Positions 6,065-54,448 of a DNA stretch of 64,000 nucleotides are shown in pieces; position 1 is the first letter of the stretch, and each line of letters opens with the position of its first letter. Both the position numbers and the translations under genes were made by a program. Under the pieces are notes generated by a model that saw only the letters and a program-made list of their open reading frames with translations, made no database searches and was not told the origin of the DNA. Source of the DNA: Candidatus Sumerlaea chitinivorans (lineage in GTDB: Bacteria; Sumerlaeota; Sumerlaeia; Sumerlaeales; Sumerlaeaceae). The DNA is taken from positions 1,205,144 through 1,269,143 of the forward strand of contig CP030759.1 of assembly GCA_003290465.1 (NCBI GenBank). The letters are read 5' to 3'.

Positions 6065-6161
6065 TCAGCTCTGGGAATGGTGATTATGCACAGCCTACCA
6101 GCTATTCCACCTGCGTCTACCCGTGGGCAGTTTTCTGTCTAAGCGACGGGGCCTCCAAACG

Positions 6162-16824: not shown

Positions 16825-16834
16825 GGTTCACTCC

Positions 16835-18088: not shown

Positions 18089-18131
18089 CGCCTCGCGTGG
18101 AAAATTAGCTGGCCAGCCTGCGCCCCCATCC

Positions 18132-19397: not shown

Positions 19398-19557
19398 ATC
19401 TTTAAGGTCCTTCGCCTGAGTGTTAGACGTCCAAGCCATGCGATTCGTTGACACTTGCCTCGCAATTGCTCTATCCCGCTCCAAATCCCCGTTCCTTGCT
19501 GCCGCTCCTCGCACACCTTGACTTCGCAAAGTTGGCAAATCGGTGGAGAATCCTGGT

Positions 19558-20610
19558 TTACCGCATCCCGAAGATCCAAAACATGAGCAACGGCCAGACG
19601 GTGAGGACGTATATGCCCATGAGTAAGCCGAGGAACGCCATCATCATGGGTTCGATTGCGCGAAGGGAGCGCCCAAATTCGTCAAGTTCATCAAGCGTGC
19701 GCTGGGCAAGGTCCTGAAAGTATTCGGTGACTGTGTCCTGAAGAAAGGCTTGTTCCATTAACCAGCACTCGTGGGAGGGGAACCATTCTTCTTTTCCAAG
19801 CGCCTCTGTGGGCGAAGCCCCACGAGCGAGCGTGTCACGTAGTTTTTTGCACACTCCTGCCAAAAGTGGTTCTTCACGCATTTGGGCAATTGCCTCGAGT
19901 CCGTCCCGCAAGCAAGCTGCTCCTCCCGAAACGAAGGTCCCCATTAGGGTAGCAAAATGGTACAAATTTGCGCGTGCGACCACGACGCCAAAGAATGGTA
20001 GGGTCGTAAGAAAACGTTCGAAGCGGGCTCTCCGCGGAGCAGAGAGGATAAGAGCAGACACTGCAAAAGTACTGAGGGCCAACACTACCAACGTACACAG
20101 GACTGCCCACCGCAAAAGGCGTACGGGTAACAAAAACTCAGTGCTCTGGGATTCAAATCCGCGGCTCATGGCTGCAAATTCCAACAATGCATACGGTTCA
20201 TTCGAAAGCGACGCGAGATACGACTCACAAACAATCATCAGAATGGCCGCGATCACCAAAACCACCACGGGATAGGTAATTGTGCGCAGGTAGGCACTCT
20301 GAATACGCCGGCGGGCTTCGACGTACGCGACAATCCGCCGAAACCACACATCCAGCTCGCCTGAGGTCTCGCCCGCAGCGATCAAGCTAATGATCGGACG
20401 AGGCAGCGGGCAGCGGGCCTTGGTCAAGGCTTCGCTCAAGCTGAGGCCTAATCGAAGGAATTCCTCTGTCACCTCAAGTGCTTGAGCAAATCTACGATTC
20501 TTCACTCCCCTACGGATAGCCGGGAGCACATCTACCGGAGCCAGTCCGACCGAAAGTCCGGCACTAAGTTCCCGTACAAAGAGCTCCAAATCTCGCCATG
20601 AGGTTCGCAT
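19558..20610 (-). CDS. Type II secretion / type IV pilus platform protein, GspF/PilC family (paralog B)
   Basis: 350 aa; two T2SSF-like repeats (RFAQALEVTEEFLRLGLSLSEALTKA...IISLIAAGETSGELDVWF; LMGTFVSGGAACLRDGLEAIAQ...LMEQAFLQDTVTEYFQDLAQ), three predicted TM segments; ATG preceded by AGGAGGG. Confidence 0.75.
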   Translation of the reverse strand: MRTSWRDLELFVRELSAGLSVGLAPVDVLPAIRRGVKNRRFAQALEVTEEFLRLGLSLSEALTKARCPLPRPIISLIAAGETSGELDVWFRRIVAYVEARRRIQSAYLRTITYPVVVLVIAAILMIVCESYLASLSNEPYALLEFAAMSRGFESQSTEFLLPVRLLRWAVLCTLVVLALSTFAVSALILSAPRRARFERFLTTLPFFGVVVARANLYHFATLMGTFVSGGAACLRDGLEAIAQMREEPLLAGVCKKLRDTLARGASPTEALGKEEWFPSHECWLMEQAFLQDTVTEYFQDLAQRTLDELDEFGRSLRAIEPMMMAFLGLLMGIYVLTVWPLLMFWIFGMR

Positions 20611-20620
20611 CGGTTCCCTC

Positions 20621-21844
20621 CTACTCGAATGGCACGATAGTTACGACAGAGAAGAGGCTGAGATAGATGGCTGACACCAAAATGATGCCAAAAGCTAAGA
20701 CGGCGAGATGCACAATCGCTGCAATAAGCTGCATCATTAGAGCCCGTTGAAGTTTCCACTTTTGCTGAAGCTCGTAGGCACCTGCGCAAAGGACCTCAGG
20801 CGCGGTTTCCGACACGCTAGCCCGCATAAGCACCTGATGAAACACCGTGGGAAGAGACGGAATCCCAGCGAAGAGATTCGGCAACGAAGCACCGGCCCTG
20901 ATTCGTTCCCGTAGGAGCGGAAGGCATCGCTGCAGAACCGGGTCCCCCGTGGCTCGTACTGCCGAGTCAAATGCAGACAAGGGATCTACGTTCCATTTCA
21001 GAAGCATTCCAAGCGTGTGTGCAAAGCGGGCCAACTTTCGAAGCCAAAGAAGTTCGGCCAGCCGTTCACTTCTGTTTGCAAGAAGGCGCCGAACCCAGAG
21101 GCTTCGTCGTTCGAGAACACGAATTCCCCACAGAAGAACAAGCAACAATACCAGACCCTGCCATAAAGGAACCGAGTATCGAACGACCTGCTGCGTGAAA
21201 ACGGGTGGTTGCTTGTGGAGATCCGCGTAGAGTTCCGCAATCCTCGGCAAGGTTTGAATGGCGAATAGGCCAAGGATAAAAGAGAATACGATGAGCTCTC
21301 CAACGATGATCCCAACCCACACCTTGCGGCTAAAACCATGCTCGCGATCCACTAACTCCTCACTTGCGAGAAACCGCAAAGCCTCGGGAAGGCTGTCCGA
21401 ATCCTCTGCAGCGGAAATGACTGCAAGGTGCGCACCGGGGACGGGCGCGCGTCGGAACAAGGTGGGTTTTAACGTCTCCGCCAGCGAAGCACCAACCTCC
21501 AATCGCTTCGATGCCCGTAGCAACAGGCGCCGCACGCGCCATGGCATCTTGATGGAGCTTGAGGCAAAGGCACGGGTAGCGTCGGCAAGTCTGCCGCGTA
21601 CCAAGCACGCTGTCCCGAGGTAACGGTAAAACTGATACCTCCAGCCATAGGGCGCCCCTGCGGTAGATCTCCCTAAGAGCAAGGCAAAAGCGTAAACAGT
21701 AAGTAAAATCCCACCTAAGAACAAGATTGAGTCATGAAACACACGAAAGAGGTTCCGGTCCGCCTGTTCCACCCACGCGATGAGCATGACGTAGAGATAA
21801 GCGGGTAAGAGAACCCAGAACAGATATCGTGGCACTCGACTCAT
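20621..21844 (-). CDS. Type II secretion / type IV pilus platform protein, GspF/PilC family (paralog A)
   Basis: 407 aa; N-terminal TM helices then two T2SSF-like repeats (LEVGASLAETLKP...HLAVISAAEDSDSLPEALRFLA; FDSAVRATGDPVLQRCLPLLRERIRAGASLPNLF...LMRASVSETAPEVL); ATG preceded by AAAGGGGA. First gene of the cluster. Confidence 0.7.
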   Translation of the reverse strand: MSRVPRYLFWVLLPAYLYVMLIAWVEQADRNLFRVFHDSILFLGGILLTVYAFALLLGRSTAGAPYGWRYQFYRYLGTACLVRGRLADATRAFASSSIKMPWRVRRLLLRASKRLEVGASLAETLKPTLFRRAPVPGAHLAVISAAEDSDSLPEALRFLASEELVDREHGFSRKVWVGIIVGELIVFSFILGLFAIQTLPRIAELYADLHKQPPVFTQQVVRYSVPLWQGLVLLLVLLWGIRVLERRSLWVRRLLANRSERLAELLWLRKLARFAHTLGMLLKWNVDPLSAFDSAVRATGDPVLQRCLPLLRERIRAGASLPNLFAGIPSLPTVFHQVLMRASVSETAPEVLCAGAYELQQKWKLQRALMMQLIAAIVHLAVLAFGIILVSAIYLSLFSVVTIVPFE

Positions 21845-22971: not shown

Positions 22972-24660
22972 TTAGCGTTCCTTTATCGTGTCTGGGAGGG
23001 TGGGCCGAGCCGATGCACGAGGCTTATAGAGGAAAAATTGCCACAGGTGCCCTCCTTGAATCACCCGATCGAGCCGGTATGTGTCGCGTAAAGCTTCCCG
23101 CATTCCGGGCGTGAACGCATCCGTGTAGGCGTCCGAAAACAAGTCCGTCGTGGACGCAAAAATTGTGAAACGCCCGGCCCGAATATCTTTCAGAAACCTT
23201 GATTCGTCCCAACGACCTTGCCGCGCCAATTCACTCATAATAAACGGCTGAAACAGCACAGGCTTTTCTGCGAAGAGCGCATAGGCGGCCACCTCGCTCA
23301 CGACGTCCCCCGAAGCTCGGGCGAGTTCGCTCGTTAAGCGAGCTGCAGCTTCGAAATCCGCGGGTGTCGGCCGCTTCCATTCGCCGAAAATCACCTTTTC
23401 CCAGCGGTGCAGGTGCACTGCGTGAAGTGCGAGGAGAAACGCCATTAGGAGAATCCACGCCTTCCATGAGTCGGACTGCGCGGCGGTGCGTTTCCGTAAT
23501 CCATATCCGATAGCAACCCCAACCGCAAGGCTCCACGCTGCAAGAGGTTCAAGGAGATAATTCTCCGCGCTTCCAGCTTTAGGAAGAGAGAGGAAATTCG
23601 TGACAGACAACATCTGGTAAGCGACGCAAGCGATAAGAAGGAAGCGCGTTCGCAAAAGTTCCTGTTCCGCCCTCGAGGTCACAGCCGTCGAGACAGGATT
23701 AGAAGAGGCCGCCGCGTCCAGTGTGCCATGAATCGTCGCGAGAGGACGCCAGGACCGGACAAGTTCACGCACAAGAAGGGCAAAAGCCAGGAGCCCGGCG
23801 AGCAGCCACCAACGGTAGAAGCGCCACACATGGGCCGCCCACACCAGCAAGTCCGGCCAGTGATAGCGATTCATGTTGTACCAAATTGTGTGAACAGCGA
23901 ATTGCCCACCCGTAAGAGCACTCAGGGCAAGGAACGGCAGGCCTGCCGCAGCTACAAATGTAACCGCGTAACGTCGAAAGGCAGCACGGTCCCACACCCA
24001 CAAAGCAATTAGCGAAACAACGGGCACGGAATACATCGTCTGCTTGGTGAACAAAGCCAGTGCAGCAAGACATGCTGCGCCGATATGCATCCACTTTTTC
24101 TCGGAACCCCCAAGCAGAAGCGCCAAGCTCGACAGCGTCAGCGCTAAGGCGAGCAAATCTACGCGAAAGTAGGCCGACCAGTTGTAGCACTCAAAGGTGG
24201 CTAAGAAAAGAAGCGGAGCAAGCAGAGCAGCAAAGATCTGACGCGTGAGTGCATAGACGATGGTGAACAGTAGAATGCCGGTGGAGAACACCGACAGTGC
24301 AGTGATGAGGCGCCCGACAAAGAAGCTGGGAGTGTGAAGATTCGTCAGGCTTCCTGCCACCCAGAGATAGAAGGGAGGATAGGTCCCAACGAGATAGGGG
24401 TAGTCGTTCAGTTCGCGGTAGAGCGGTTTGCCTTGGGCAACACGTACAGCTTGAGCGAGGAGTGCCCCTTCTTCGTTGTCCAGTTGAAGCATCGGATGAG
24501 CAAGCGCCTCAGTCACACGTACATAAACGTGTGGGATCAGCACCGCCAGCCCCAACACACATAAGACTACGAGCCCCCGAATGAGTATGGCACCGAAGTC
24601 GTCGGGCCATCGGTTTTCCTGCGTTGCTTCCTCCTCAACCTGCACAGGATTGTTCATCAT
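22972..24660 (-). CDS. Polytopic membrane glycosyltransferase (GT39/ArnT/PMT-like fold)
   Basis: ORF 22972..24717; likely start at MMNNPVQ. Multi-TM N-terminal region with Tyr/Trp-rich loops and a C-terminal soluble domain, typical of lipid-linked-sugar-using glycosyltransferases. Family assignment is by pattern only. Confidence 0.5.
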   Translation of the reverse strand: MMNNPVQVEEEATQENRWPDDFGAILIRGLVVLCVLGLAVLIPHVYVRVTEALAHPMLQLDNEEGALLAQAVRVAQGKPLYRELNDYPYLVGTYPPFYLWVAGSLTNLHTPSFFVGRLITALSVFSTGILLFTIVYALTRQIFAALLAPLLFLATFECYNWSAYFRVDLLALALTLSSLALLLGGSEKKWMHIGAACLAALALFTKQTMYSVPVVSLIALWVWDRAAFRRYAVTFVAAAGLPFLALSALTGGQFAVHTIWYNMNRYHWPDLLVWAAHVWRFYRWWLLAGLLAFALLVRELVRSWRPLATIHGTLDAAASSNPVSTAVTSRAEQELLRTRFLLIACVAYQMLSVTNFLSLPKAGSAENYLLEPLAAWSLAVGVAIGYGLRKRTAAQSDSWKAWILLMAFLLALHAVHLHRWEKVIFGEWKRPTPADFEAAARLTSELARASGDVVSEVAAYALFAEKPVLFQPFIMSELARQGRWDESRFLKDIRAGRFTIFASTTDLFSDAYTDAFTPGMREALRDTYRLDRVIQGGHLWQFFLYKPRASARPTLPDTIKER

Positions 24661-25879
24661 CCGCCTCTTGAGGAGCAGAATGAATGGTCTGGGTCGCCGC
24701 AAGCCGGTGGAGGCCACGCAACACCGCGGCGCCTACAACGTCACCGCGTAAAGCTTCCATGCACATGGGCTGCTTGTCGCAGGTCTTTAAATAGCATGGG
24801 CTGCAGCTGAAATCGGTCACAATTTTCTCACCACGATCATAAAGCTCAATTTCAACGGGGGAAGTTGAGCCAAAGATTGCGACGACCCATTTCTGTCGGG
24901 CAATCGCGATATGCATTGCCAGACTGTCGGAGCTCACGACTAAATCACAGGCATCCACCACACCGACGAACTCGTCGAGCGTATTGCCGCAGCCGGTGTC
25001 GAAGAGATAGGGACAGCGCTGAAGGATCTGGGCGTTGAGTTCGCGCTCGGCTTCACCTCCGAGAAGCAGCAACGATACGTGTGGAAGGTGCGCATGCAAG
25101 AACTCGCACAACTCAACCCACCCTGCTAAGGTCCACTGCTTGGTTCGAAAAACTGAGCCGCAACCCGTGTTGATCCCGATGCGCGGTGGCTGGGGTACCC
25201 CGGCGAGAATCTCGGCGCGACGACGCTGACCGTTTTCAGTCAAAAAAAGTTGGTAGGGATCGCGCGCGTATGGCAGGCAGGCCATTTCGGCAATGATTTC
25301 TGGATACGTTTTCCGATTCTTGCGAAATTTCAGCTCGTCGCTCACCCCGAGAAGCAAGGCATATTCCGACTCAGGATTGAATACCGTCGGCGTATTCCAT
25401 TGCGTAGGTGCAAAACCAAGGTGTCTACGGGCAGGAACCTTTCCCGCAAGTGCAAGCGGCTCACTTTCCTTCTCAAAGTTTAAGAGAAGATCAAACGTCT
25501 CGCGCATGAGGGTTTGAACCGTTTCGCCGTCGAGGGCCAACAACCGGTCTATATTCGGGTTTGCCATCAGCAACGGAATGGACGGAGGGGCAGTCACCCA
25601 CGTGATATGGGAGCGGGGATACGCTCGGCGCAACGGAGCCAAAAGGGTTGTCGTGCGGAGCACATCGCCCATGGCACCGGTTTTGATGATCAGGATGCGC
25701 ACCTGTCCGGCCTCACCAAAGGCGCCCGGGGCGGTCACCTTGACTGGACTTGCCGGGTTGCCAACCACCTCGCTCCGCCGCTCGTACCATTGGCAATCTC
25801 GGCATTCATTGCCGTACTTGCACGGCTTGTAGCCGTTGTAGAGAACGCAATCGAATTTGATGTCTCTGAATTCAAGCAT
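24635..25879 (-). CDS. Glycosyltransferase family 9 (ADP-heptose:LPS heptosyltransferase-like) with Cys-rich N-terminal extension
   Basis: 414 aa; GT9 pattern VRILIIKTGAMGDVLRTTTLLAPLRRAYPRSHITWV and C-terminal ...CDLVVSSDSLAMHIAIARQKWVVAIFGSTSP; N-terminal ~40 aa MLEFRDIKFDCVLYNGYKPCKYGNECRDCQWY contains 5 Cys. Confidence 0.75.
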   Translation of the reverse strand: MLEFRDIKFDCVLYNGYKPCKYGNECRDCQWYERRSEVVGNPASPVKVTAPGAFGEAGQVRILIIKTGAMGDVLRTTTLLAPLRRAYPRSHITWVTAPPSIPLLMANPNIDRLLALDGETVQTLMRETFDLLLNFEKESEPLALAGKVPARRHLGFAPTQWNTPTVFNPESEYALLLGVSDELKFRKNRKTYPEIIAEMACLPYARDPYQLFLTENGQRRRAEILAGVPQPPRIGINTGCGSVFRTKQWTLAGWVELCEFLHAHLPHVSLLLLGGEAERELNAQILQRCPYLFDTGCGNTLDEFVGVVDACDLVVSSDSLAMHIAIARQKWVVAIFGSTSPVEIELYDRGEKIVTDFSCSPCYLKTCDKQPMCMEALRGDVVGAAVLRGLHRLAATQTIHSAPQEADDEQSCAG

Positions 25880-30948: not shown

Positions 30949-32934
30949 ATGAACAGTAGCTATCGTTCAATGTCAGTTAACGTGATTCTTTTACTACTCG
31001 CGGGAGTGCTAATTGGAAACGTATCAGTTGGCGCTCCCGAGAAAACGCGCAAGTCTCGTGTCACGCTAAAAGATGAGCAGCCAGAATTATCAACGACCCA
31101 TGTCAATGGGCCTTCTGTCGCATCTGGCAAGAATGACAAGATAAGCGCGCAGTCAGATGGTCCGACTTCAAGGGTTGCCACCTCCAAGGATGGAAAGACG
31201 GACAAAGTCACAACCTCCATTGATGTCGGGACGCCTGGGAATTTCCTGCTTGCTCGCGTCAAGGACAAGTACCTGCGGGATCCCGATGTCATGAACTATA
31301 AGCAACTGATGGACATCACCGAAGGTGGGGTGTGGACGGATGTCCGTGATCGTGAAACACTTGAGGACATGGTCCTTCAGGAAGTACTCTTTGATATCGT
31401 CCCCACTCTTCGTAAGGAGGAACATGGGAGCCTCCATGGTACGTATCCTTCCACCATGGAAGAGCGCATGTACCTTCGGGTCAGGATGCGCGAAGAGATA
31501 GAAAAAGAAACCACCCCGACTCGCGAGCAGCTCGAAGAATGGACTGCACGCAACATTTCCCGCTTCACCCGACCTGAGCGCGTGCACGCTTATCACCTCT
31601 TCATGCAGGTCTCGAAGGATAATCCGACCAGCAGCCTTGAAGCAGTGCGGCAGCGGATGGAAAAGGTAAAACAAGAGGCGGACGCCGGGACATCTTTTGC
31701 GCAGCTTGCTCGCAAGTACTCGGAAGCTGCCAGCGCCAAGGTGGGAGGCGAGATTGGATGGGTGACCCGCCGAATGCCAATCGGCGCGGAAAATAAGCCG
31801 ATGAACATTGTCCTCGAGAACGCCCTGTTTGCTCTTAAAACCGGTCAGGTCTCGGACATTCTTCAGACCTCCCATGGGCTCCACCTTATGTATGTTGCGG
31901 ACCGGCTCACGACCTACGTTCCTACAGTGGATGACCTCATTACAAGCCGTATCTTGCCGAGAAGTGCACAGGTGGAACTTGTTGCGCAGAAATGGCGGGA
32001 TTTGACGTCCGCAACCCGTCAGCGCTATCACGCGAAGATCCTCTTCGATCTAAATAAAGGCACCAAGCTGACGACCGACGTTCCTGCGGTGGAGTTCAAC
32101 GGCCAGAAGTGGACGGTGGGGGAACTTGAGCAATTGTATGGTCAGCGCTTCGTTTCCGCCTACCGCCTGCGTCAAGACACGACAGAGACTTTGGTAGGGC
32201 TCCTGAATGAAGTCCTGGACGAAATGGCGCAGGTACAGCTCGCACTCGACAGGAAGCTGGACAAAGATACCACCGTCGCCCGCAATTTGAAACTTCTTCA
32301 TGATCGAGTACTTTTCAAGAAAGCCTTCCAGCAGTACGTTGCGCAAACTTCACCGATTACTGAGAAGAAAATCAGAGATAAGTACGAGGCGGAAAAGGAC
32401 CGGAATCGGCTACCAGAGGCCACGGGTTACATCATTTCGATCAAAGTGCAACCAACGACGGTAGGCTTGGACCGCGAAGAAGCGCGAAAAATCGCGCGCG
32501 AGAAAGCTGAAGAGATCCGCAAACAGATCCTCGCGGGAGCTGATATCGAAAAGCTTGCTCGGGAGCACTCCCAAGACGATCGCGCCTCCTCGGGCGGACT
32601 GGTCCCGCGAAGCCGTCTTGCATCGCTGCATGACCTCTCGGGCCGACGTTTTGCCGCAGTGGCAAGTACACTCAAACCCGGTGAGGTGAGCGATGTGCGT
32701 GACTTTGGCGACGTCTTCGTAGTGGTGAAGCTTGTCGAACGCTGGCCCGGTGAGCCTCCTGCTATTGAAGAGGTGCGCGAGCGCTTGAAGGCAGCTCTCA
32801 CGAATGAGGCAAACCGTACTGCACGTGACCGGCTGATTAACGCGGCTGCACAAAAAGGCCTGTTGCGGTGGGCGAATCCGGCTGCAAGTTATGGAATCAC
32901 GCCCAAACCCAATCTGGCAGATGACCCGCAATGA
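30949..32934 (+). CDS. Periplasmic chaperone / peptidyl-prolyl isomerase, SurA/PpiD/PrsA-like (parvulin domains)
   Basis: 661 aa; signal peptide MSVNVILLLLAGVLIGNVSVGA; parvulin-like segments (FAQLARKYSEAASAKVGGEIGWVTR; LAREHSQDDRASSGGLVPRSRL...); ATG preceded by AAGGAG; 13 bp after the upstream gene. Confidence 0.7.
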   Translation: MNSSYRSMSVNVILLLLAGVLIGNVSVGAPEKTRKSRVTLKDEQPELSTTHVNGPSVASGKNDKISAQSDGPTSRVATSKDGKTDKVTTSIDVGTPGNFLLARVKDKYLRDPDVMNYKQLMDITEGGVWTDVRDRETLEDMVLQEVLFDIVPTLRKEEHGSLHGTYPSTMEERMYLRVRMREEIEKETTPTREQLEEWTARNISRFTRPERVHAYHLFMQVSKDNPTSSLEAVRQRMEKVKQEADAGTSFAQLARKYSEAASAKVGGEIGWVTRRMPIGAENKPMNIVLENALFALKTGQVSDILQTSHGLHLMYVADRLTTYVPTVDDLITSRILPRSAQVELVAQKWRDLTSATRQRYHAKILFDLNKGTKLTTDVPAVEFNGQKWTVGELEQLYGQRFVSAYRLRQDTTETLVGLLNEVLDEMAQVQLALDRKLDKDTTVARNLKLLHDRVLFKKAFQQYVAQTSPITEKKIRDKYEAEKDRNRLPEATGYIISIKVQPTTVGLDREEARKIAREKAEEIRKQILAGADIEKLAREHSQDDRASSGGLVPRSRLASLHDLSGRRFAAVASTLKPGEVSDVRDFGDVFVVVKLVERWPGEPPAIEEVRERLKAALTNEANRTARDRLINAAAQKGLLRWANPAASYGITPKPNLADDPQ

Positions 32935-42726: not shown

Positions 42727-42896
42727 GGTTGGCCTTCTTAGTTGGGAATTCTAACAAGTCCTTGCCAAATCAAATTTTGCCTTGATAGTAATTAGGACCA
42801 CAACGGTCGCGGTTCGCGGAAAATCCGTTGGCATGTTTTCGTTGATTGACGTTCATCAGTTTATCACCACGAACTACGTTTCAGAAAGGTTCGGAA

Positions 42897-43763
42897 ATGG
42901 CCGAGAATCTAAAGGCGCTGCGGCGACGCCTGCGGACAATTCGAAACACCAAGCAGATTACGCGCGCGATGGAAATGGTTAGCGCGGCAAAGTTGCGCCG
43001 TGCACAAAATGCGCTTTTTGCAGGAAGGCCTTACGCGTCCAAGCTTACGGACGTGTTAGCTCGCCTCAGTGCAAGCGGCACCGTCGCACACCCCCTTCTT
43101 GCTCAGCGGGAGCTGCGGCAAAGGTGGCTTGTTGTTGTGACTGCCGACCGCGGGCTTGCCGGAGCGTTCAACGCGCAAATCATAAAACAAGCCGAACAAT
43201 TCCTGCGGGAAAATCCTGAAAACGTAGCTCTCGTGTGCATTGGAAAAAAGGGGTTCGACTACTTTCGGACGAAGAAATGGCAGATTGCGTGGGCGGTGAC
43301 CGACCTCAATGCCAGAATCTCCTCGCAACGAGCAAACGAAATCGCTGATCGCCTTATGGAGAGTTTCCTAAACGAGGAGACCGACGAGGTTCTGTTGCTC
43401 TACAACAAATTTATCTCCACACTGGTGTATCGGCCTGCTCTGGAGCCCATTTTGCCACTGCGGGCTATCACAGGGCAGGAGACGGAAACCCGAAGTTCGG
43501 TACGAGAATACCTGCTGGAGCCCTCACCCGATGCTGTCCTTCAGGCCTTGCTGCCGCGCTTCGTTCGAAGTAAAATCTTTATCATGTTAGCAGAAACCTT
43601 CACTGCTGAGCACAGCGCCAGAATGGTGGCAATGAGTGGGGCAACACGCAATTGCGAAGAGCTTACGGACAAACTCACGCTCAGGTTGAACAAAGTACGC
43701 CAAGCGGCAATCACGAAGGAGATTATTGAAATCGTGAGTGGGGCCGAGGCACTGAAGGCCTGA
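42897..43763 (+). CDS. atpG: F-type ATP synthase gamma subunit
   Basis: ORF 42846..43763 (TTG); ATG at 42897 after AAAGG. N-terminus MAENLKALRRRLRTIRNTKQITRAMEMVSAAKLRRAQ and C-terminus ...ITKEIIEIVSGAEALKA are canonical gamma-subunit helices. No other atp genes adjacent. Confidence 0.9.
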   Translation: MAENLKALRRRLRTIRNTKQITRAMEMVSAAKLRRAQNALFAGRPYASKLTDVLARLSASGTVAHPLLAQRELRQRWLVVVTADRGLAGAFNAQIIKQAEQFLRENPENVALVCIGKKGFDYFRTKKWQIAWAVTDLNARISSQRANEIADRLMESFLNEETDEVLLLYNKFISTLVYRPALEPILPLRAITGQETETRSSVREYLLEPSPDAVLQALLPRFVRSKIFIMLAETFTAEHSARMVAMSGATRNCEELTDKLTLRLNKVRQAAITKEIIEIVSGAEALKA

Positions 43764-45514: not shown

Positions 45515-46978
45515 TTATGCGGTTTTACCATTGCGTCGAGAGAGAGCCCACTTCAGGAGAGGTGGGGTCATCATAGTGGTCACAACGACCATAATGACGA
45601 TCGCGGAGAAGGTGTCGGTAGCAATCACGCTGTGCCCTTCGGGCGTTCGCATTGCGGCGCCGATACTCGCGACGATGAGTCCTACCTCGCCTCGCGGGAC
45701 CATGCCCAAACCCACAACCATTCGTTTGAGCCCTTTTTCTAAGACACCGAGAGCGCAGATTTGCTTTCCGGCGATAGCTGCAACAGTGAGAGCAAGAGCG
45801 AATCCCAGAACGTGCCACTGGGCAAATACTGCAAGTTGGACTTTCATTCCCATGTGGACGAAGAACACCGGAACAAGAAAGTCACAGACCGGCTTCAGAA
45901 GCTTTTCCAAAGGTTCTTCGCGCCCCTCCCAGTTGAGGAAAGTCGCTTCTTCGAGTACGAGCCCCGCTGCGAAAGCCCCAACAATCGGAGCTAATCCAAT
46001 CTTTGCGGCGATATAGGAAATCGCAAAGCACCAAATTAGCGTGACAGTGAGTAGAATCCCTTTTCCACGCAAATACGTTGCCCAGTGGAACAGTTTCCGT
46101 GAAACAGTCAATCCAAGAGCAATGGCAAGGATGAAGAAAAGGAGAGCCTTTACGACAATCCACGCGACCGCCCAGAGGCTGATCTCTTGTCCAGAGTTCA
46201 CGGCAGTAATAATGCCTTGGACCGCTGCAAGCACGATGAGGCCGAGGACATCGTCGATGACTGCGGCCCCCAAGACAATCTTAGCCTCGCGCAGTTGCAT
46301 TTTCCCTAAGTCCGATAGCACGCGTGCCGTAATGCCAACACTTGTGGCTGCAAGCACTGCCCCCAGATATAAATGCACTGTCCACGGTTCCTGAGGCAGA
46401 AAGATTTCGCCCACGAGAAAACCAAGCGCTACTGGCGCTACGACCCCTAAGCACGCCACGAGAAGCGATGATGGCCCAACGGACACCATCTCGCGAACAG
46501 TGGCTTCAAGACCAACCTCGAAGAGCAACAGAATCACTCCGATTTCGGCGATGACGGTAATGAACAAATCTACGGTTGGGTCATGAACAATGCGGTCGAG
46601 TGAGTCGGACAAAAACGGCATGTGGAATAGAGAGAGATTGCCGAGCACCATGCCGAAAATCAGTTCTCCCAGGACAGCCGGTTGCCCAAACCGCTCAAAC
46701 AAATCGCCGCCCACTTTCGCAGCGAGCAGAATTAAGATCAGGACAATGAGGACTTCCTCCACCAGCCCCGCGGCATGAGGTTTATCGGCCTTCGATTCTG
46801 GCACCCCAGTCGTGGAACTGGAATGCGGCGATGACTCCATCGCGGGAGCAGTAGTCACGGACTCTCCTGCTGTGGGGGAAGCAAAGCCCAATGGGCTTTG
46901 ACCTGTCACGAAAAAGTAGAGCACACTTGTGACAACAGCGAGCAGCAACGCACGATAAAAACGGCCTCGTCTCAACAT
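45515..46978 (-). CDS. Cation:proton antiporter (CPA1/CPA2, Na+/H+ exchanger family)
   Basis: 487 aa polytopic membrane protein; pattern AVLGELIFGMVLGN...LLLFEVGLEATVREM...; N-terminal ~60 aa Ser/Thr-rich extension. Confidence 0.8.
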   Translation of the reverse strand: MLRRGRFYRALLLAVVTSVLYFFVTGQSPLGFASPTAGESVTTAPAMESSPHSSSTTGVPESKADKPHAAGLVEEVLIVLILILLAAKVGGDLFERFGQPAVLGELIFGMVLGNLSLFHMPFLSDSLDRIVHDPTVDLFITVIAEIGVILLLFEVGLEATVREMVSVGPSSLLVACLGVVAPVALGFLVGEIFLPQEPWTVHLYLGAVLAATSVGITARVLSDLGKMQLREAKIVLGAAVIDDVLGLIVLAAVQGIITAVNSGQEISLWAVAWIVVKALLFFILAIALGLTVSRKLFHWATYLRGKGILLTVTLIWCFAISYIAAKIGLAPIVGAFAAGLVLEEATFLNWEGREEPLEKLLKPVCDFLVPVFFVHMGMKVQLAVFAQWHVLGFALALTVAAIAGKQICALGVLEKGLKRMVVGLGMVPRGEVGLIVASIGAAMRTPEGHSVIATDTFSAIVIMVVVTTMMTPPLLKWALSRRNGKTA

Positions 46979-47070: not shown

Positions 47071-47154
47071 GCGGGCGTGGCGGAATGGCAGACGCGCCGG
47101 ACTTAGGATCCGGTTCCGCAAGGAGTGGAGGTTCAAGTCCTCTCGCCCGCACCA
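47071..47154 (+). tRNA. tRNA-Leu (anticodon TAG)
   Basis: GCGGGCG-TG-GCGGAATGGCAGACGC-G-CCGGA-CTTAGGA-TCCGG-(variable arm TTCCGCAAGGAGT)-GGAGG-TTCAAGT-CCTCT-CGCCCGC-A-CCA. 7-bp acceptor stem, anticodon UAG, long variable arm, encoded CCA. Coordinates checked against the overlapping ORF's codon frame. Confidence 0.88.
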
Positions 47155-47206
47155 CCTTCACGGACTAAAGTCCTATTTCTTCCCCACTCAAACTTCTTCG
47201 TGTGCC

Positions 47207-48451
47207 TCAATAGAAATAGGTATCAAAAATTCGTCGCATACGCTCGATGAAACGGCTTACCACATTCTCATGGTGTATTGGATAGGCCACAAGGGGATCG
47301 TTTCGCAGTGCCCCCATTACCAGACCAACACAGGTCGAGTAGGCAGGGGATTTTACAGCATTCTTCAACCCGTGGATACAATCGGGATAGCGCACCACGA
47401 CCTCATCACTTTTGTCGAGCACACGACCAGCAACATCTTCGATGCCTTTGAGTAGGGCGGTTCCCCCTGTCAGCACCACGCCTGCTTTGAGGCGCTGGTC
47501 AATGCGTGCTGCCGTAAGCAAGTCACGCACCTTTGTAAAAATCAGCTCAAGCTGAGCTTCGACAATTTCACAAAGAAATGCGCGAGAGACCGTACGAGTC
47601 TTGTCCGCGAGCACATCCGTGTATTCGACCACTTCCGTCGGATCAACCCCCCGCGAAGTTGCTTGTGCTGAACGAATCTTCAAATTTTCGGCCTCTTCAG
47701 GGGAACAATGAAGCACCTTGTATATGTCGCGTGTCACGTTGTCGCCCCCGCATGGCACAACACCAGTGAAAATCACGCTATCATTATCAATCACCGCGAT
47801 ATCGGTGGTTCCCCCGCCAATGTCGAGTAGGATGACACCCGCCTTCCGTGCCTCGGGTGTTAGAGTCGCAACAGCGCTTGCAAGACTTTCAAGCACGGTT
47901 TCTCGTGGAGTAATTCCCGCGCGCTGTATACAGCGCGTAATGTTGCCCATGCTAAAGGTATCCGCAAGGACGATGTGCATGTGGACTGTGAGCTGGTTGC
48001 CGGTCATACCGATCGGATTCTGCACACCGTGAGCATCGTCGACACTGTAGCTGTTAGGAATGCAGTGGAGAATAGTTTCTCCTTCCTGACGCGGCAACTT
48101 TTCAATCGTGCGCTGAATGACTTTACGCCGGTCCTCTTCCGTGACCCCACGCTGGGGATTTGCAATCTCGATTCCCCCACTGACGTTTAGGCTGCGCACG
48201 TGATTCCCGGCGATGCCGACGAACACCTCGCGAATGCGGTAGCCGGAGTTTTCCTCACATGCTTGCACGGCACTCTGGATGGAAGCTACCGTTTGCTCAA
48301 TGTCGACGACTTTGCCGCAACGCAAACCATAAGAGGGGCGGGGCGCAAATCCAATGATGTTGATCTGATCCTTGTCGTCAATATAACCTTGGATCGCACA
48401 GATCTTGGTTGTACCGATATCGAGCCCCGTGACAATTCGCTTTTTTCCCAT
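47207..48451 (-). CDS. ftsA: Cell division protein FtsA (actin-like ATPase)
   Basis: 414 aa; IVTGLDIGTTKICAI, VFVGIAGNHV, ILLDIGGGTTDIAVI, C-terminal amphipathic tail. Confidence 0.88.
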   Translation of the reverse strand: MGKKRIVTGLDIGTTKICAIQGYIDDKDQINIIGFAPRPSYGLRCGKVVDIEQTVASIQSAVQACEENSGYRIREVFVGIAGNHVRSLNVSGGIEIANPQRGVTEEDRRKVIQRTIEKLPRQEGETILHCIPNSYSVDDAHGVQNPIGMTGNQLTVHMHIVLADTFSMGNITRCIQRAGITPRETVLESLASAVATLTPEARKAGVILLDIGGGTTDIAVIDNDSVIFTGVVPCGGDNVTRDIYKVLHCSPEEAENLKIRSAQATSRGVDPTEVVEYTDVLADKTRTVSRAFLCEIVEAQLELIFTKVRDLLTAARIDQRLKAGVVLTGGTALLKGIEDVAGRVLDKSDEVVVRYPDCIHGLKNAVKSPAYSTCVGLVMGALRNDPLVAYPIHHENVVSRFIERMRRIFDTYFY

Positions 48452-48467
48452 TCACACTCTCTCCTCG

Positions 48468-49712
48468 TCACTCCGACTGGTCATCAACTGGGGCCAAAAG
48501 AATGGGCTGGCGAGTCTGAGAGGCCTGCCTCCGCCAGAAGAAAAACCGAGAACGGCGCTGAGGTACTTCGGGTTGTAGATCAGAAACCACGCTGGGTTCG
48601 TGAGAGAATTCGATTGTTCCATCTTCCACATTGCCTGCCTGTCGGCTACGATTCTCACTACGTACCGATTCGCTTTTTCGTTTTGTTTGGGGGTTTTGAT
48701 TCTCTGAGGCTGGCCCGCCAAATGATGCTGAACGTGCATTTGATGCCGTTTTGTCTGCATGAGAATCTTTTTTCTTTTCGGCCGCCTCGCTCTCTTTTGC
48801 TGTCGCCTCGATATCCTCAAGCAGCCCAGCCCGAAGGGCGAGCGCGGTCGCACGATCCATGTAAACGATCTGATTGCGAAACCGCAGATCGACATACGCG
48901 AGCGAAAATGGGTCGTTCCCCTGCTGCTTTTGTTGCTGCACGAAGAAGTCCAGCGCGGGCAATTTCTCCACTGGGTTCTTATCTCCGAACCGCACTTCCA
49001 TTCCGCCCCGCAGACGAGCTGTGATATTGTCAAACTGGGCAACGGGATCCTTCGCAAGGTTGACCTCAGACAGCCACGAATACAATTCTGGATTTCGGTC
49101 ACGTAACGTCTCTACCAGTTCAAGTGCGCGCCGGAGGACGACGTTGGGAATCTGCTTGCCCACTTCCACTTCACTACCGGCTATTCCTGTAATGTAGGGT
49201 AAATCATACTCGCGCAATGCGGCAGGCCGTACCCGATCCACAACGTATCCTTCTCGATCCACAAGATAGAAGCCGTCCGCACTGACGATGGCGACGGGCA
49301 CACGTTCTGCAGCACTAACAAGTAAGGTATCGGGATACGAAATAGACACGCGTGGTTGCCGGATTTTAGGATACGCCGCCAAGTCGCGCTGGAGTTTGGT
49401 GAGGTTAATTGCTAACAAATTTGGGTTAGGACCTAAGAGCTCGCTCGTCAGCGAACGAAGCTCATCTTCGAGTGGTTTGGATACTCCCACGATTTTTAGG
49501 GTACGGAGGCGGAAATACGGTTGGTCCAAGACCCATTGGTAGGAAGCTTGCGCTATCGCCCAAACCGCGAGGGAGGTCCCAATGAGATAAAACAAAAACA
49601 GCAATGGCGAACGACGACGACGGCCACGGTGATCCCGTGATTTTGGTGCACGACGGCCCGAAGTCACGTCACGAACCACTTCTCTTTTTGATTTTGGTGC
49701 GAGATAGGCCAT
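48468..49712 (-). CDS. ftsQ: Cell division protein FtsQ/DivIB (POTRA domain) with long disordered C-terminal extension
   Basis: 414 aa; basic N-terminus, single TM (LLFLFYLIGTSLAVWAIA), POTRA-like FRLRTLKIVGVSKPLEDELRS; ~120-aa Lys/Glu/Ser-rich C-terminal tail; immediately upstream of ftsA. Confidence 0.75.
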   Translation of the reverse strand: MAYLAPKSKREVVRDVTSGRRAPKSRDHRGRRRRSPLLFLFYLIGTSLAVWAIAQASYQWVLDQPYFRLRTLKIVGVSKPLEDELRSLTSELLGPNPNLLAINLTKLQRDLAAYPKIRQPRVSISYPDTLLVSAAERVPVAIVSADGFYLVDREGYVVDRVRPAALREYDLPYITGIAGSEVEVGKQIPNVVLRRALELVETLRDRNPELYSWLSEVNLAKDPVAQFDNITARLRGGMEVRFGDKNPVEKLPALDFFVQQQKQQGNDPFSLAYVDLRFRNQIVYMDRATALALRAGLLEDIEATAKESEAAEKKKDSHADKTASNARSASFGGPASENQNPQTKRKSESVRSENRSRQAGNVEDGTIEFSHEPSVVSDLQPEVPQRRSRFFFWRRQASQTRQPILLAPVDDQSE

Positions 49713-50089
49713 CGTCCAGCCCTACTGCATCCCTTTCCCTCACCCAACCCTAAACCTGCTAATTAGTTGGGTTATTTGGGGTTAGCCGTAAGATCTTCAA
49801 GTAATTTTGTACAAAGCTTCTATGTAAGACGACAATCGAAGCTTGGTACCGGTTTCCAGCCAGAGCATTCGTGACAGAGCTTTGCTACCAAAGCAAGAGG
49901 TTTTCCAGCAAAACCTGTGATTGCTCGCACAAAAGGCGGCTCTCCGACTCCCGCCGCTTCCCGGCTCGTGATTTCTCAGCAGCCTCCACCAGAATCGTGC
50001 TTGCACAAAAGACAACGGCACCATCAGCTTCATCCTGATTCTCAATTCTCACGTGAGAATACAACACAGACCCTCAAGGCGGACAACAG

Positions 50090-51301
50090 ATGAGCTCGCA
50101 ACACGGCGATTTGCACGAGTCATTTTTGCGCTACGTGTGCCAGACATCGCCTTTCCCGACTGCATTCGAAGTGAGTCACGCGAAGGGGTGTTATCTCTAC
50201 GACCGAGCGGGGCGGGCATATCTCGATTTTATTTCGGGCATCTCTGTGAACAATCTTGGGCATAATCACCCGGCGATCCAAGCCGCGGTGATGCAACAAA
50301 TTGAGCGATATGCCCACACGATGGTGTATGGCGAACACATTCAAGAGCCTCAAGTGAAGTTGGCTCGGGCTTTGGCGGAGATCGCGCCGGAGAATTTGAA
50401 TTGCGTCTACTTTCTCTCTACTGGGGCCGAGGCAAACGATGCGGCACTTAAGCTTGCTGCAAAGTTGACCGGTAGGCGCCGGTTTTGCGCGTTTCACAAG
50501 GCTTATCACGGGGACACGGTGGGAGCGGCGTCCTGTTTTGGGGACGAGTCATTTCGCCACCCTTACCAGCATATCCTTCTTCCTGTCACATTTCTGGAAT
50601 TTGGCAAGGTTGATGATCTGGAGAAGATCACTGAGGATATTGCAGCGGTGCTTGTGGAACCAGTGCAAGGCGAGGGAGGAATTCGGGTTCCATTGCCAAG
50701 TTTTTTACAAAGTCTGCGGCAGCGATGCACTGCTACTGGAACTTTGCTAATTTTTGATGAGGTACAAACCGCATTGGGACGCGTCGGCGATTGGTTTGCG
50801 GCCACTCTTTTCAACGTTACCCCCGACTTGATCACCATGGCAAAAGCTTTGGGCGGTGGGTATCCTCTCGGTGCCTTGGTCGGCGAACGAGAGATGCTTC
50901 GGAGGTTTGCCGCTGAGCCGCCCTTTTCGCATATCACCACTTTTGGTGGACATCCAGTCTCGTGCGCAGCTGGGTTAGCGGTGATCCGCACCATCCGCAG
51001 CGAGCGTCTACTAAGCAACGCCCGACGCATGGGCAAGAAGCTGATGGAGGGGCTGCAGAAGATTTGCCTTCGAGACGAGCGTGTGCGAGAAGTGCGTGGG
51101 ACAGGGCTTATGATCGGGGTCGAGCTCATGGATTCTCAGCTTGCCCGCAAGGTAGTGACGGACTGTCGCGAACGTGGGCTCATCCTTGAGACTACGCTGC
51201 TCGACGAGCGCGTCGTGCGGTTCAGTCCCCCTTTGATCGTAAGTGAACAGGAGTGTAGCACCGCGCTCGAGATTTTTGAAACCGTTCTGAAGGAGTGCTG
51301 A
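50090..51301 (+). CDS. Class III aminotransferase (acetylornithine/ornithine aminotransferase-like)
   Basis: 403 aa; DFISGISVNNLGHNHP, LSTGAEANDAALKLA, LLIFDEVQTALGRVG, TMAKALGGG (PLP lysine in AKALGGG). Confidence 0.8.
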   Translation: MSSQHGDLHESFLRYVCQTSPFPTAFEVSHAKGCYLYDRAGRAYLDFISGISVNNLGHNHPAIQAAVMQQIERYAHTMVYGEHIQEPQVKLARALAEIAPENLNCVYFLSTGAEANDAALKLAAKLTGRRRFCAFHKAYHGDTVGAASCFGDESFRHPYQHILLPVTFLEFGKVDDLEKITEDIAAVLVEPVQGEGGIRVPLPSFLQSLRQRCTATGTLLIFDEVQTALGRVGDWFAATLFNVTPDLITMAKALGGGYPLGALVGEREMLRRFAAEPPFSHITTFGGHPVSCAAGLAVIRTIRSERLLSNARRMGKKLMEGLQKICLRDERVREVRGTGLMIGVELMDSQLARKVVTDCRERGLILETTLLDERVVRFSPPLIVSEQECSTALEIFETVLKEC

Positions 51302-53281: not shown

Positions 53282-54448
53282 TTGCTTTCTAGGGTCCGCT
53301 ATCATCCGTTGATAGCCATGGGTGCAATTAATTTCAGCAGGAAGTGGTCAAACCTTTTCGGGCTTGTGTTTGTGGGCGCTGCAATTGTTTGGAGCGTTGT
53401 GGCCATCCCGTGCTGGAGCACATCGTCACAAGCACCATTCAGTGCGCGAGGTCAGGGGAACGCAGCCAATACGTCTCGTTCTGGCAAGGGCACACATCCT
53501 GCTCTTCCTTCCGTTCGACTCGGTGATATTGCCCCGCTGGATTTGAGCAAACTGCCTCAGTTACCCACAGGGGAACGCTATGTAGCAGTGGTGAATGGCA
53601 CGACAATTACGGAGCGACGTTTCGCTGCAGAGCTTGCCCTTGCGATCGAACAGCAACAGTTCTCACAGATTCCTTCTCCCACGACGTCCGATGAAGCCGC
53701 GGGATTGCGAGCCGCCCTCGCCCAACCGGTCCTCGATCAACTCATCGCCAATGTTTTGATCAAGCAGCTTGCAGAGCGCCGACGAGTTTCTGTCGCCGAT
53801 GCAGAAGTAGAGCGTGCTGTCAACCAAACGAACGAGAAGCTCCCTCCGGGACGGAAGTTGCAGGACCTCGCGGTCTCCTATGGCCTCACTTTTGACGAGA
53901 TCAAAGATACGTTTCGAGCGCTGCTTCTTGCCGCGAAAATTGAAGACACTTTTGGGCGTGATGAGCGAGATCCCACTCCAGAGGAGCTCCGGAACTTCCT
54001 CAAGAGCCATCCTGAAGCAAACACACCAAACGAAGAAATTCGGGTGAGTGCGATTTTGCTCAAGTTGCCGAATCAAGCCACAACCGAGACTCGTGAGCGG
54101 ACCCGCAGGCTTGCGGAGAGAATTGTCCAAGAGCTGCGTGGCGGAGCCGATTTCTGTGAGCTTGCGATGAACTACTCACAGGATCGGGCTTCTGCTCCAA
54201 AGTGTGGTGATCTTGGTTACGTTTCACGCGGCAAGATGGATCCAGAATTCGACAAGGTCGCGTTCTCATTACCAATCGGAAAAATCAGCGACGTGGTGGC
54301 CACCCCTCGCGGGTTTTACATCATCTTGGTGCGCGAGAAACATCCTACGAGCGCTCGTCAGGCTTATCGTCAGTTCAAAAAACGTGAAGCCTACCTGCGG
54401 TGGTTCGAAGAAGAAAAACGCAAGGCAAAGATCGAAAAATTCTTGTAG
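53282..54448 (+). CDS. Peptidyl-prolyl cis-trans isomerase, parvulin/SurA-like
   Basis: 388 aa; N-terminal TM/signal anchor; C-terminal PpiC pattern FCELAMNYSQDRASAPKCGDLGYVSRGKMDPEFDKVAFSLPIGKISDVVATPRGFYIILV. Start may be at the internal Met at 53318. Confidence 0.75.
   Translation: MLSRVRYHPLIAMGAINFSRKWSNLFGLVFVGAAIVWSVVAIPCWSTSSQAPFSARGQGNAANTSRSGKGTHPALPSVRLGDIAPLDLSKLPQLPTGERYVAVVNGTTITERRFAAELALAIEQQQFSQIPSPTTSDEAAGLRAALAQPVLDQLIANVLIKQLAERRRVSVADAEVERAVNQTNEKLPPGRKLQDLAVSYGLTFDEIKDTFRALLLAAKIEDTFGRDERDPTPEELRNFLKSHPEANTPNEEIRVSAILLKLPNQATTETRERTRRLAERIVQELRGGADFCELAMNYSQDRASAPKCGDLGYVSRGKMDPEFDKVAFSLPIGKISDVVATPRGFYIILVREKHPTSARQAYRQFKKREAYLRWFEEEKRKAKIEKFL

Follow-up and report, generated by a model that had tools for sequence, protein, structure and literature searches.

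In Escherichia coli and most bacterial phyla, the 3′ end of the dcw cluster runs from murC/ddl or murB through ftsQ and ftsA to ftsZ. In Candidatus Sumerlaea chitinivorans, a member of the Sumerlaeota (the phylum earlier named BRC1), ftsQ and ftsA form an isolated pair. This raises the question of whether ftsZ has been lost from this lineage or lies elsewhere on the chromosome, and the locus is informative about bacterial division only if ftsZ is truly missing from the genome. Our analysis points to the second answer: the dcw cluster has very probably been broken up in the family, leaving ftsQ–ftsA as a presumably functional two-gene operon, and ftsZ has been relocated rather than lost.

Layout of the ftsQ–ftsA locus

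The window, a 64-kb stretch of contig CP030759.1, contains the following features around the pair.

45515–46978, minus strand: CPA2-family monovalent cation:proton antiporter (Pfam Na_H_Exchanger, 207 bits)
47071–47154, plus strand: tRNA-Leu gene (anticodon TAG; ARAGORN), convergent with ftsA
47207–48451, minus strand: ftsA, encoding a 414-aa actin-like cell-division protein (Pfam FtsA, 112 bits; SHS2_FTSA, 76 bits)
48468–49712, minus strand: ftsQ, encoding a 414-aa bitopic division protein (Pfam FtsQ_DivIB_C, 42.5 bits; cutoff 21)
49713–50089: intergenic region (377 bp) that separates the divergent ftsQ and aminotransferase genes
50090–51301, plus strand: class-III (ArgD-like) aminotransferase (Pfam Aminotran_3, 345 bits), divergent from ftsQ

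As the initial annotation had described, ftsQ and ftsA are adjacent on the minus strand, with a tRNA-Leu gene and a cation antiporter in place of ftsZ and a divergent aminotransferase, rather than ddl or murC, upstream of ftsQ. The spacer between the two genes is 16 nt. Position 47071, which had been given as the start of the pair, is that of the tRNA gene; ftsA itself ends at 47207. The tRNA-Leu(TAG) gene holds the slot 3′ of ftsA that is taken by ftsZ in most bacteria. The antiporter, an unrelated neighbor downstream of ftsA, scored 154 bits with TIGR00932, under the cutoff of that subfamily. For the aminotransferase, the top NCBIfam models were those of acetylornithine transaminase, and every one of them scored below its cutoff.

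The 377-bp intergenic region is the presumed promoter region of a ftsQ–ftsA bicistron. No sigma-70-like match was found within it, promoter-like matches in the 3.3 kb around ftsQ–ftsA did not exceed their frequency in shuffled sequences, and a terminator scan around the pair gave no signal above shuffled sequence.

Linkage of ftsQ–ftsA to mur, ddl, mraY, or ftsW upstream and to ftsZ downstream was not found in the window or in its 10-kb flanks. Tubulin/FtsZ, Mur ligase, MurB, MurG, MraY, FtsW, and Ddl domains were absent from the window ORFs of at least 180 amino acids, and tblastn searches of the window with the FtsZ of E. coli and five Sumerlaeota FtsZ sequences (E ≤ 10) returned only noise, with no remnant or pseudogene. 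In the 10 kb past either window end, ftsZ, mur, and ddl were also not found. A GT9 glycosyltransferase gene (24635–25879) was considered as a former ftsZ–GT2–GT9 site and rejected: an ABC transporter lies upstream of it, and similarity to FtsZ was nil. The lack of ftsZ, or of any remnant of it, in about 84 kb around ftsA is compatible with the loss of ftsZ in Ca. S. chitinivorans, which would then divide without FtsZ, as do the Planctomycetota and Chlamydiota, yet, unusually, would have kept FtsA and FtsQ. As the following sections describe, we consider such a loss unlikely.

Identity of FtsA and FtsQ

Weak secondary Pfam matches to MreB_Mbl and PilM_2, together with the type II secretion/type IV pilus-like modules in the window (15790–21844), might suggest that the putative ftsA encodes a PilM/MreB-type actin paralog beside a POTRA protein, in which case no ftsZ neighbor would be expected. 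The initial annotation had itself raised this concern. Membership of FtsA was assessed with TIGR01174 or with PF14450 plus PF02491. The protein scored 349.7 bits with the TIGR01174 equivalog model (cutoff 175.85), whereas its scores with the models for PilM (45.9; cutoff 133), MreB (53.9; cutoff 365.75), and EutJ (46; cutoff 182) were all far below their cutoffs. The FtsA-specific SHS2 insertion (subdomain 1C) is present at residues 82–161 and covers the whole PF02491 profile (76 bits). The top matches in the PDB were the FtsA structures 7q6g and 7q6d (E = 1e-56), and every significant PDB match was an FtsA. Moreover, homologs in L105, L015, and 75 other loci are placed between ftsQ and ftsZ. 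With model scores, the SHS2 insertion, structural matches, and the context of homologs all pointing the same way, the paralog reading was rejected as having practically no chance of being correct, and the product of 47207–48451 is a genuine FtsA.

This FtsA is also intact, and its sequence matches at 100% identity that of P0001, a protein named FtsA of Ca. S. chitinivorans. A C-terminal amphipathic membrane-targeting helix is predicted at residues ~396–414, with a peak hydrophobic moment of 0.85 at NVVSRFIERMRRIF (residues 396–409). All 66 positions that are invariant among 18 homologs, a set that includes one genome with an adjacent ftsZ, are retained, so there is no sign of decay. An FtsA with twice the equivalog cutoff score, a membrane-targeting helix, and all of the clade-invariant residues speaks against the loss of ftsZ, because a tether for FtsZ would be unexpected in a cell lacking FtsZ.

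Membership of FtsQ/DivIB was assessed with PF03799 and PF08478. The protein has a basic N-terminus, a single transmembrane segment at ~36–55 (Kyte–Doolittle maximum at 36–54), and an FtsQ/DivIB domain at residues 142–277 that matches the complete profile. Its matches to the NCBIfam FtsQ equivalogs were weak and far under the cutoffs. POTRA_1 was not reported in the window FtsQ at E ≤ 0.001; residues 65–140 align with the orthologs that bear POTRA_1, which was detected, in part weakly, in L003, L004, L005, L006, L015, and L066. Beyond the FtsQ/DivIB domain, the protein carries a low-complexity C-terminal tail of ~120–130 amino acids, ending in RSRFFFWRR. In an alignment with seven relatives, this tail was confined to the clade of genomes that have only ftsQ–ftsA; the FtsQ proteins of L105, L015, and L066 are 272–285 amino acids long and lack it.

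In a more specific form of the loss scenario, ftsZ has been wholly lost, FtsA and the tail-extended FtsQ have been kept, and division has become FtsA-dependent and FtsZ-independent. We regard this as improbable. In its weaker version, the periplasmic tail of the Sumerlaeaceae FtsQ, with its RFxFWRR motif, would have appeared as the cluster broke up and would be a novel module for interactions within the divisome.

Gene order in Sumerlaeota relatives

Of the 79 informative loci, which come from many phyla, 75 have ftsZ downstream of ftsA at a distance of no more than 800 nt, and two of the four exceptions are Sumerlaeota. Three relatives, L003 (GCA_026418615.1), L004, and L005 (GCA_019695055.1), have the aminotransferase gene followed by ftsQ–ftsA, with ftsZ missing and with differing downstream genes; their FtsA proteins are 44–45% identical to that of the window. 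The aminotransferase gene occupies the equivalent position beside ftsQ in L002, L003, L004, and L005. The layout of an aminotransferase gene and ftsQ–ftsA without ftsZ is thus the norm in this clade, the very outcome that the initial annotation had named as grounds for giving up its reading of the locus.

These comparisons also bear on the quality of the assembly. The window comes from a metagenome-assembled genome (MAG), and misjoins tend to fall at tRNA genes or between genes, so that the isolation of ftsQ–ftsA could be an assembly or binning artifact, with a chimeric join at the tRNA gene or in the divergent intergenic region. However, two independent assemblies of this organism (GCA_017161645.1 and GCA_026416205.1) share the order ABC transporter–aminotransferase–ftsQ–ftsA–antiporter–coaX–birA–atpG, the upstream junction is common to three other genomes, and the GC content is flat at 0.53 through the region. 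An artifact is therefore very improbable.

Sumerlaeota-like genomes at a greater distance retain more of the cluster. L105 has the full order murE–murF–mraY–murD–ftsW–murG–murC–murB–ftsQ–ftsA–ftsZ, and L015 (BRC1 ADurb.BinA292) has murB–ftsQ–ftsA–ftsZ. In L066 (Sumerlaeia 15dZY3.bin.32), an aldo/keto reductase gene is inserted between ftsA and ftsZ (murB..ftsQ–ftsA–[aldo/keto reductase]–ftsZ), and L006 has murC–murB–ftsQ–ftsA without ftsZ. Intermediate stages of break-up are thus found across the phylum, from the full cluster, through the insertion of one gene, to the departure of ftsZ with murCB kept. Sumerlaeota relatives in which the cluster persists have murC and then murB ahead of ftsQ, and not the ddl named in the initial annotation.

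In a neighbor-joining tree of FtsA, the eight Sumerlaeota-type sequences formed one clade (80% bootstrap). Within it, the genomes that have only ftsQ–ftsA grouped with a bootstrap value of just 44%, and the window FtsA was on a long branch; the case for one common origin of the rearrangement thus leans mainly on the shared aminotransferase neighbor. The long branch, with only 45% identity to the closest relatives, could also be taken as a sign of ftsZ loss.

The following course for the relocation of ftsZ is very probable. The ancestral Sumerlaeota order would have been the canonical murE...murC–murB–ftsQ–ftsA–ftsZ. On the line of descent to Ca. S. chitinivorans, one breakpoint would have parted ftsQ from murB, where the class-III aminotransferase gene is now divergent upstream, and another would have parted ftsA from ftsZ. 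The downstream neighbors vary by genus, being tRNA-Leu and the antiporter here. The ftsQ–ftsA pair would persist as an ordinary, presumably functional bicistronic operon, probably transcribed from its own promoter, and ftsZ as a lone gene at another chromosomal site.

Location of ftsZ

Stand-alone ftsZ genes occur in several Sumerlaeota genomes. In the MAGs of L003 and L005, which share the layout of the window, a canonical ftsZ is located on a separate contig (loci L086 and L087); its product has both expected domains (Tubulin and FtsZ_C), the motif GGGTGTG, and a tail of the form DDL(D/E)TPPFLKRRKNLFE. In three further Sumerlaeota-type genomes (L088, L100, and L104), ftsZ also stands alone, and the 10 kb to either side of it contain no ftsA. 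Glycosyltransferase genes often lie downstream of the stand-alone ftsZ in the family. All relatives that could be checked encode a canonical FtsZ whose C-terminal peptide for FtsA binding is intact, which argues against loss. The DDL(D/E)TPPFLKRRKNLFE tail is conserved among the FtsZ proteins of relatives, and the window FtsA may bind the C-terminal peptide of FtsZ; it is expected to tether FtsZ filaments to the membrane via its amphipathic helix and to recruit FtsQ and the late divisome.

The FtsZ of Ca. S. chitinivorans itself was not among the best 120 matches of a profile search built from two Sumerlaeia FtsZ sequences, nor among the best 120 of one built from two Sumerlaeaceae FtsZ sequences. 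Its absence from both lists would fit a loss of ftsZ, but the lists end at ~500 bits, with more than 100 places taken by closer Sumerlaeota sequences, and therefore say nothing on this point. A phmmer search of 1.84 billion representatives (50% identity), followed by inspection of the clusters of the 10 top representatives, also did not identify it; the candidates P0247, P0282, and P0211 were rejected because they belong to other Sumerlaeota genomes. In a published pan-genome table of the Sumerlaeota, the FtsZ family COG0206 comprises 11 genes, the same number as FtsA, and is inferred to have been present at internal Node 4 of the phylum tree (PMC8092238, Data Set S1h); division genes are not discussed in the text of that paper. 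The equal counts of FtsZ and FtsA genes are a further point against loss, as is the absence of ftsA from phyla that lack FtsZ (PMC8871954). Judging from its relatives, Ca. S. chitinivorans in all likelihood carries ftsZ elsewhere in its genome. Of the two options in the initial annotation, relocation or absence, the stand-alone genes of the relatives and the published table favor the former, and the latter is unlikely.

Comparison with known systems

The locus resembles the 3′ end of a canonical dcw cluster in that ftsQ directly precedes ftsA on one strand, with a 16-nt spacer, a standard domain architecture in FtsA, and an apparently standard one in FtsQ, but it differs in having no ftsZ after ftsA and no mur or ddl genes before ftsQ. 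L105, L015, and L066 belong to the same FtsA clade (80% bootstrap), and their FtsA proteins are 38–41% identical to that of the window; however, they keep murB upstream and ftsZ downstream and have a shorter FtsQ.

The Sumerlaeaceae join the lineages in which the dcw cluster, otherwise very stable, has been fragmented. An aminotransferase gene divergent from ftsQ–ftsA, combined with a stand-alone ftsZ, can serve as a gene-order marker for the family, and a missing ftsZ after ftsA should not be taken as the loss of FtsZ. The suggestion that the locus is informative thus stands with respect to the lineage, whereas it says little about unusual division machinery: it reflects a rearrangement typical of the lineage rather than a novel way of dividing, and has little import beyond taxonomy and annotation.

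Among fragmented clusters, that of the Cyanobacteria, in which the dcw genes are dispersed, a ftsQ–ftsZ doublet survives, and ftsA is absent (PMC8871954), is similar in that most dcw genes are present yet scattered and small doublets survive. The surviving doublet in the Sumerlaeaceae, in contrast, is ftsQ–ftsA, with ftsA kept. The Planctomycetota and Chlamydiota lack both ftsZ and ftsA genome-wide (PMC8871954). The locus described here shares with these FtsZ-less PVC lineages the presence of remaining division genes without an adjoining ftsZ, but the relatives in the Sumerlaeaceae demonstrably retain both ftsZ and ftsA.

The ftsQ–ftsA locus

The initial annotation described ftsQ and ftsA as adjacent on the minus strand, with a tRNA-Leu gene, a cation antiporter gene, and a divergent aminotransferase gene as neighbors. 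All were borne out: two ORFs, ftsQ upstream of ftsA with a 16-nt spacer, matched the respective Pfam families, between the following genes.

Genes at the ftsQ–ftsA locus (window positions)
45515-46978: CPA2-type antiporter
47071-47154, plus strand: tRNA-Leu(TAG), convergent with ftsA
47207-48451, minus strand: ftsA, 414 aa; Pfam FtsA, 112 bits, and SHS2, 76 bits
48468-49712, minus strand: ftsQ, 414 aa; Pfam FtsQ_DivIB_C, 42.5 bits (cutoff 21)
48468-48850: FtsQ tail, C-terminal ~120–130 aa
50090-51301: class-III aminotransferase, divergent from ftsQ across a 377-bp intergenic region

FtsQ had a basic N-terminus and a single hydrophobic segment (residues 36–55). FtsA carried the SHS2 insertion specific to this family and scored 349.7 bits against the ftsA equivalog TIGR01174 (NCBIfam; cutoff 175.85). 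A PilM or MreB paralog, the alternative considered for this gene, was rejected, with scores far below the NCBIfam cutoffs (45.9 bits against 133 for PilM; 53.9 bits against 365.75 for MreB) and every significant PDB match being an FtsA structure (best 7q6g, E=1e-56); the original ftsA call was upheld. The protein was 100% identical to the NCBI-named FtsA of Candidatus Sumerlaea chitinivorans (1,337,063-bp contig, GCA_017161645.1) and was intact, retaining every one of the 66 positions that do not vary across 18 homologues. Its C-terminus, NVVSRFIERMRRIF, was its strongest amphipathic segment (hydrophobic moment 0.85), which fits a predicted membrane-targeting helix.

In a Pfam scan of essentially every ORF of at least 180 aa in the 64-kb window, no Tubulin/FtsZ, Mur ligase, MurB, MurG, MraY, FtsW, or Ddl domain was found. 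Searching the window by tblastn with FtsZ from E. coli and five Sumerlaeota returned only noise, even at E<=10, and therefore the window contains no ftsZ pseudogene. The 10 kb beyond either window end added no division or cell-wall genes, so that the absence of ftsZ, mur, and ddl noted beside the pair holds across the window and both extensions. An assembly artifact is very unlikely to be the source of this isolation, because a second assembly (GCA_026416205.1) had the same order from an ABC transporter gene through ftsQ, ftsA, the antiporter, coaX, birA, and atpG, and the GC content was flat across the region.

Elsewhere in the window, an ATP synthase gamma subunit gene (42846-43763, plus strand; PF00231, 317 bits) stood alone between a wecB-like epimerase gene and birA–coaX, with no further atp genes nearby, and an epsilon-subunit-like gene (ATP-synt_DE_N) just outside the window (L098) was likewise isolated. 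[quoted passage not shown] Five secretion/pilus-type genes (15790-21844, minus strand) were ordered F-F-E-F-F, where the four F are GspF/PilC-like (T2SSF) genes and E is a GspE/PilB-like ATPase gene. Of the T2SSF proteins, the longer two (407 and 492 aa) matched the domain at the C-terminus alone. Positions 14772-15338 held a prepilin-like gene (N_methyl). Two genes for SurA/PpiD-like parvulin peptidyl-prolyl isomerases occurred <25 kb apart (53282-54448 and 30949-32934, both plus strand), the latter encoding 661 aa with two rotamase regions.

Distribution of ftsA without ftsZ

An FtsA profile searched against species-representative genomes yielded 80 loci from many phyla, 79 of them informative. 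The ftsA–ftsZ linkage, which the initial annotation took to be conserved across most phyla, was indeed so: in 75 of the 79 loci, a same-strand ftsZ followed ftsA by <=800 nt (median distance between alignments, ~145 nt). Compared with bacteria in general, ftsQ–ftsA without ftsZ is unusual. Two of the four exceptions were labelled Sumerlaeota. The only non-Sumerlaeota loci among the 79 without ftsZ <=10 kb downstream of ftsA were from a Woeseiaceae MAG (L057) and Armatimonadetes CG2_30_59_28 (L072), which may be additional independent breaks.

Within the organism's own clade, the layout is not unusual. The nearest FtsA homologues (44–45% identical) came from the Sumerlaeaceae MAGs GCA_026418615.1 (L003) and GCA_019695055.1 (L005) and an ENA metagenome contig (L004). 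All three had a class-III aminotransferase gene divergent from ftsQ–ftsA; downstream of ftsA were unrelated genes, differing among them, and no ftsZ. The initial annotation had named a clade-wide norm as what would count against its interest in the locus, and the synteny of these relatives matches the window. At L004:7500-8482 and 5949-7088, the aminotransferase gene was split into two ORFs of 182 and 159 aa, with a DDE transposase gene ~0.4 kb past it; the aminotransferase gene is probably a pseudogene resulting from insertion-sequence activity at the same junction.

More distant loci retained more of the cluster. An ENA contig (L105), whose FtsA and FtsZ both grouped with Sumerlaeota, carried murE-murF-mraY-murD-ftsW-murG-murC-murB-ftsQ-ftsA-ftsZ; BRC1 bacterium ADurb.BinA292 (L015) had murB-ftsQ-ftsA-ftsZ; a Sumerlaeia genome (L066) had murB and ftsQ-ftsA, with a single aldo/keto reductase gene inserted before ftsZ; and another Sumerlaeota genome (L006) had murC-murB-ftsQ-ftsA, with no ftsZ in the next 4 kb. 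These four and the sequences from loci with ftsQ–ftsA only formed one clade in a neighbor-joining FtsA tree (80% bootstrap). The latter group itself received 44%, because the window FtsA lies on a long branch, and a single upstream break rests more securely on the common aminotransferase junction than on this tree. Within Sumerlaeota, the dcw cluster would have eroded stepwise at its 3' end, with the window representing the fully separated state.

FtsQ was 363–427 aa long in the ftsQ–ftsA-only clade (window, L003, L004, and L005) and 272–285 aa, without a tail, in L006, L015, L066, and L105, which keep murB or murB and ftsZ. The tail was low-complexity, rich in S/E/A/R/Q, presumably periplasmic, and ended in a semi-conserved [LS]RFxFWRR motif.

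Tail-bearing FtsQ of relatives
L003:8759-9976
L004:8887-9978
L005:724-2007

Location of ftsZ

A profile built from the FtsZ of L015 and L066, in which ftsZ still follows ftsA, recovered many Sumerlaeota FtsZ, including those of two MAGs whose ftsQ–ftsA loci lack ftsZ. In both MAGs, ftsZ stood alone on a different contig from the ftsQ–ftsA locus. Its neighbors in GCA_026418615.1 (L086) were a type III CRISPR-Cas locus on one side and GT2/GT9 glycosyltransferase genes on the other; in GCA_019695055.1 (L087) they were unrelated small genes. Both proteins were canonical, with Tubulin and FtsZ_C domains, the GGGTGTG nucleotide-binding signature, the T7 loop NVDF, and, at the C-terminus, a conserved peptide, DDL(D/E)TPPFLKRRKNLFE, resembling those that bind FtsA. 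Stand-alone ftsZ, usually with glycosyltransferase genes after it and with no ftsA <=10 kb away, was also found in three further Sumerlaeota-type genomes (L088, L100, and L104). Same-strand glycosyltransferase genes (GT2 then GT9 heptosyltransferase-like, or GT4) followed ftsZ at L086:8934-12402, L088:10001-14510, and L100:10001-12703, and this vicinity is a recurrent new neighborhood of ftsZ in several Sumerlaeota genomes. These stand-alone genes therefore show that ftsZ was relocated, not lost, in the family Sumerlaeaceae. In the supplementary gene-family table of a comparative-genomics study of Sumerlaeota (PMC8092238, Data Set S1h), the FtsZ family (COG0206) has 11 genes, equal to the FtsA, MurG, and MurD counts, and is inferred to be present at internal Node 4 of the Sumerlaeota tree (posterior probability 0.999998). 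Two proteins akin to Sumerlaeaceae FtsZ, P0292 (840 aa) and P0294 (826 aa), came from a search of database representatives. Each contained two complete FtsZ units (2x Tubulin and 2x FtsZ_C); they are either tandem FtsZ–FtsZ fusions or duplicated genes that gene calling read through as one.

The FtsZ of Candidatus S. chitinivorans was not among the best 120 matches of either FtsZ profile search, both occupied by other Sumerlaeota sequences down to ~500 bits; nor was it identified among the unnamed representatives, collapsed at 50% identity, of an exhaustive FtsZ search, and a single-protein FtsA search of genome contigs found no relative. Since FtsA is only 45% identical to its nearest relatives, FtsZ is expected to fall below these floors, and its absence from the lists is no evidence of loss. 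The initial annotation held ftsZ to be relocated or absent; relocation is supported by the Sumerlaeaceae MAGs, and absence is disfavored because every checkable relative has FtsZ. FtsA is moreover intact, with its invariant positions and predicted membrane-targeting helix retained, and the FtsZ-less phyla treated in PMC8871954 also lack FtsA. We thus consider it very probable that ftsZ sits elsewhere in this genome.

Presumed function and comparison with other lineages

FtsA anchors FtsZ filaments at the membrane and brings in downstream components of the divisome, and FtsQ is a bitopic scaffold of the FtsQLB complex; by analogy, the window proteins should act as their families do elsewhere. 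Transcription of both genes together probably starts at a promoter within the 377-bp divergent region and probably stops ahead of the convergent tRNA-Leu gene. A promoter/terminator consensus scan around ftsQ–ftsA gave nothing above shuffle expectation, as is unsurprising in a phylum that has been little studied.

Broad surveys have found the dcw cluster to be ancient, yet broken in some clades. Its fragmentation is well documented in several lineages, and the literature searched contained no description for Sumerlaeota. The isolation of ftsQ–ftsA adds one more lineage to a known phenomenon, and the genes involved are ordinary representatives of known families. The locus is of low interest, and would be of far greater interest only if ftsZ were missing from the genome altogether. 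In Cyanobacteria, as described in PMC8871954, the dcw genes are dispersed, and the surviving doublet there is ftsQ–ftsZ.
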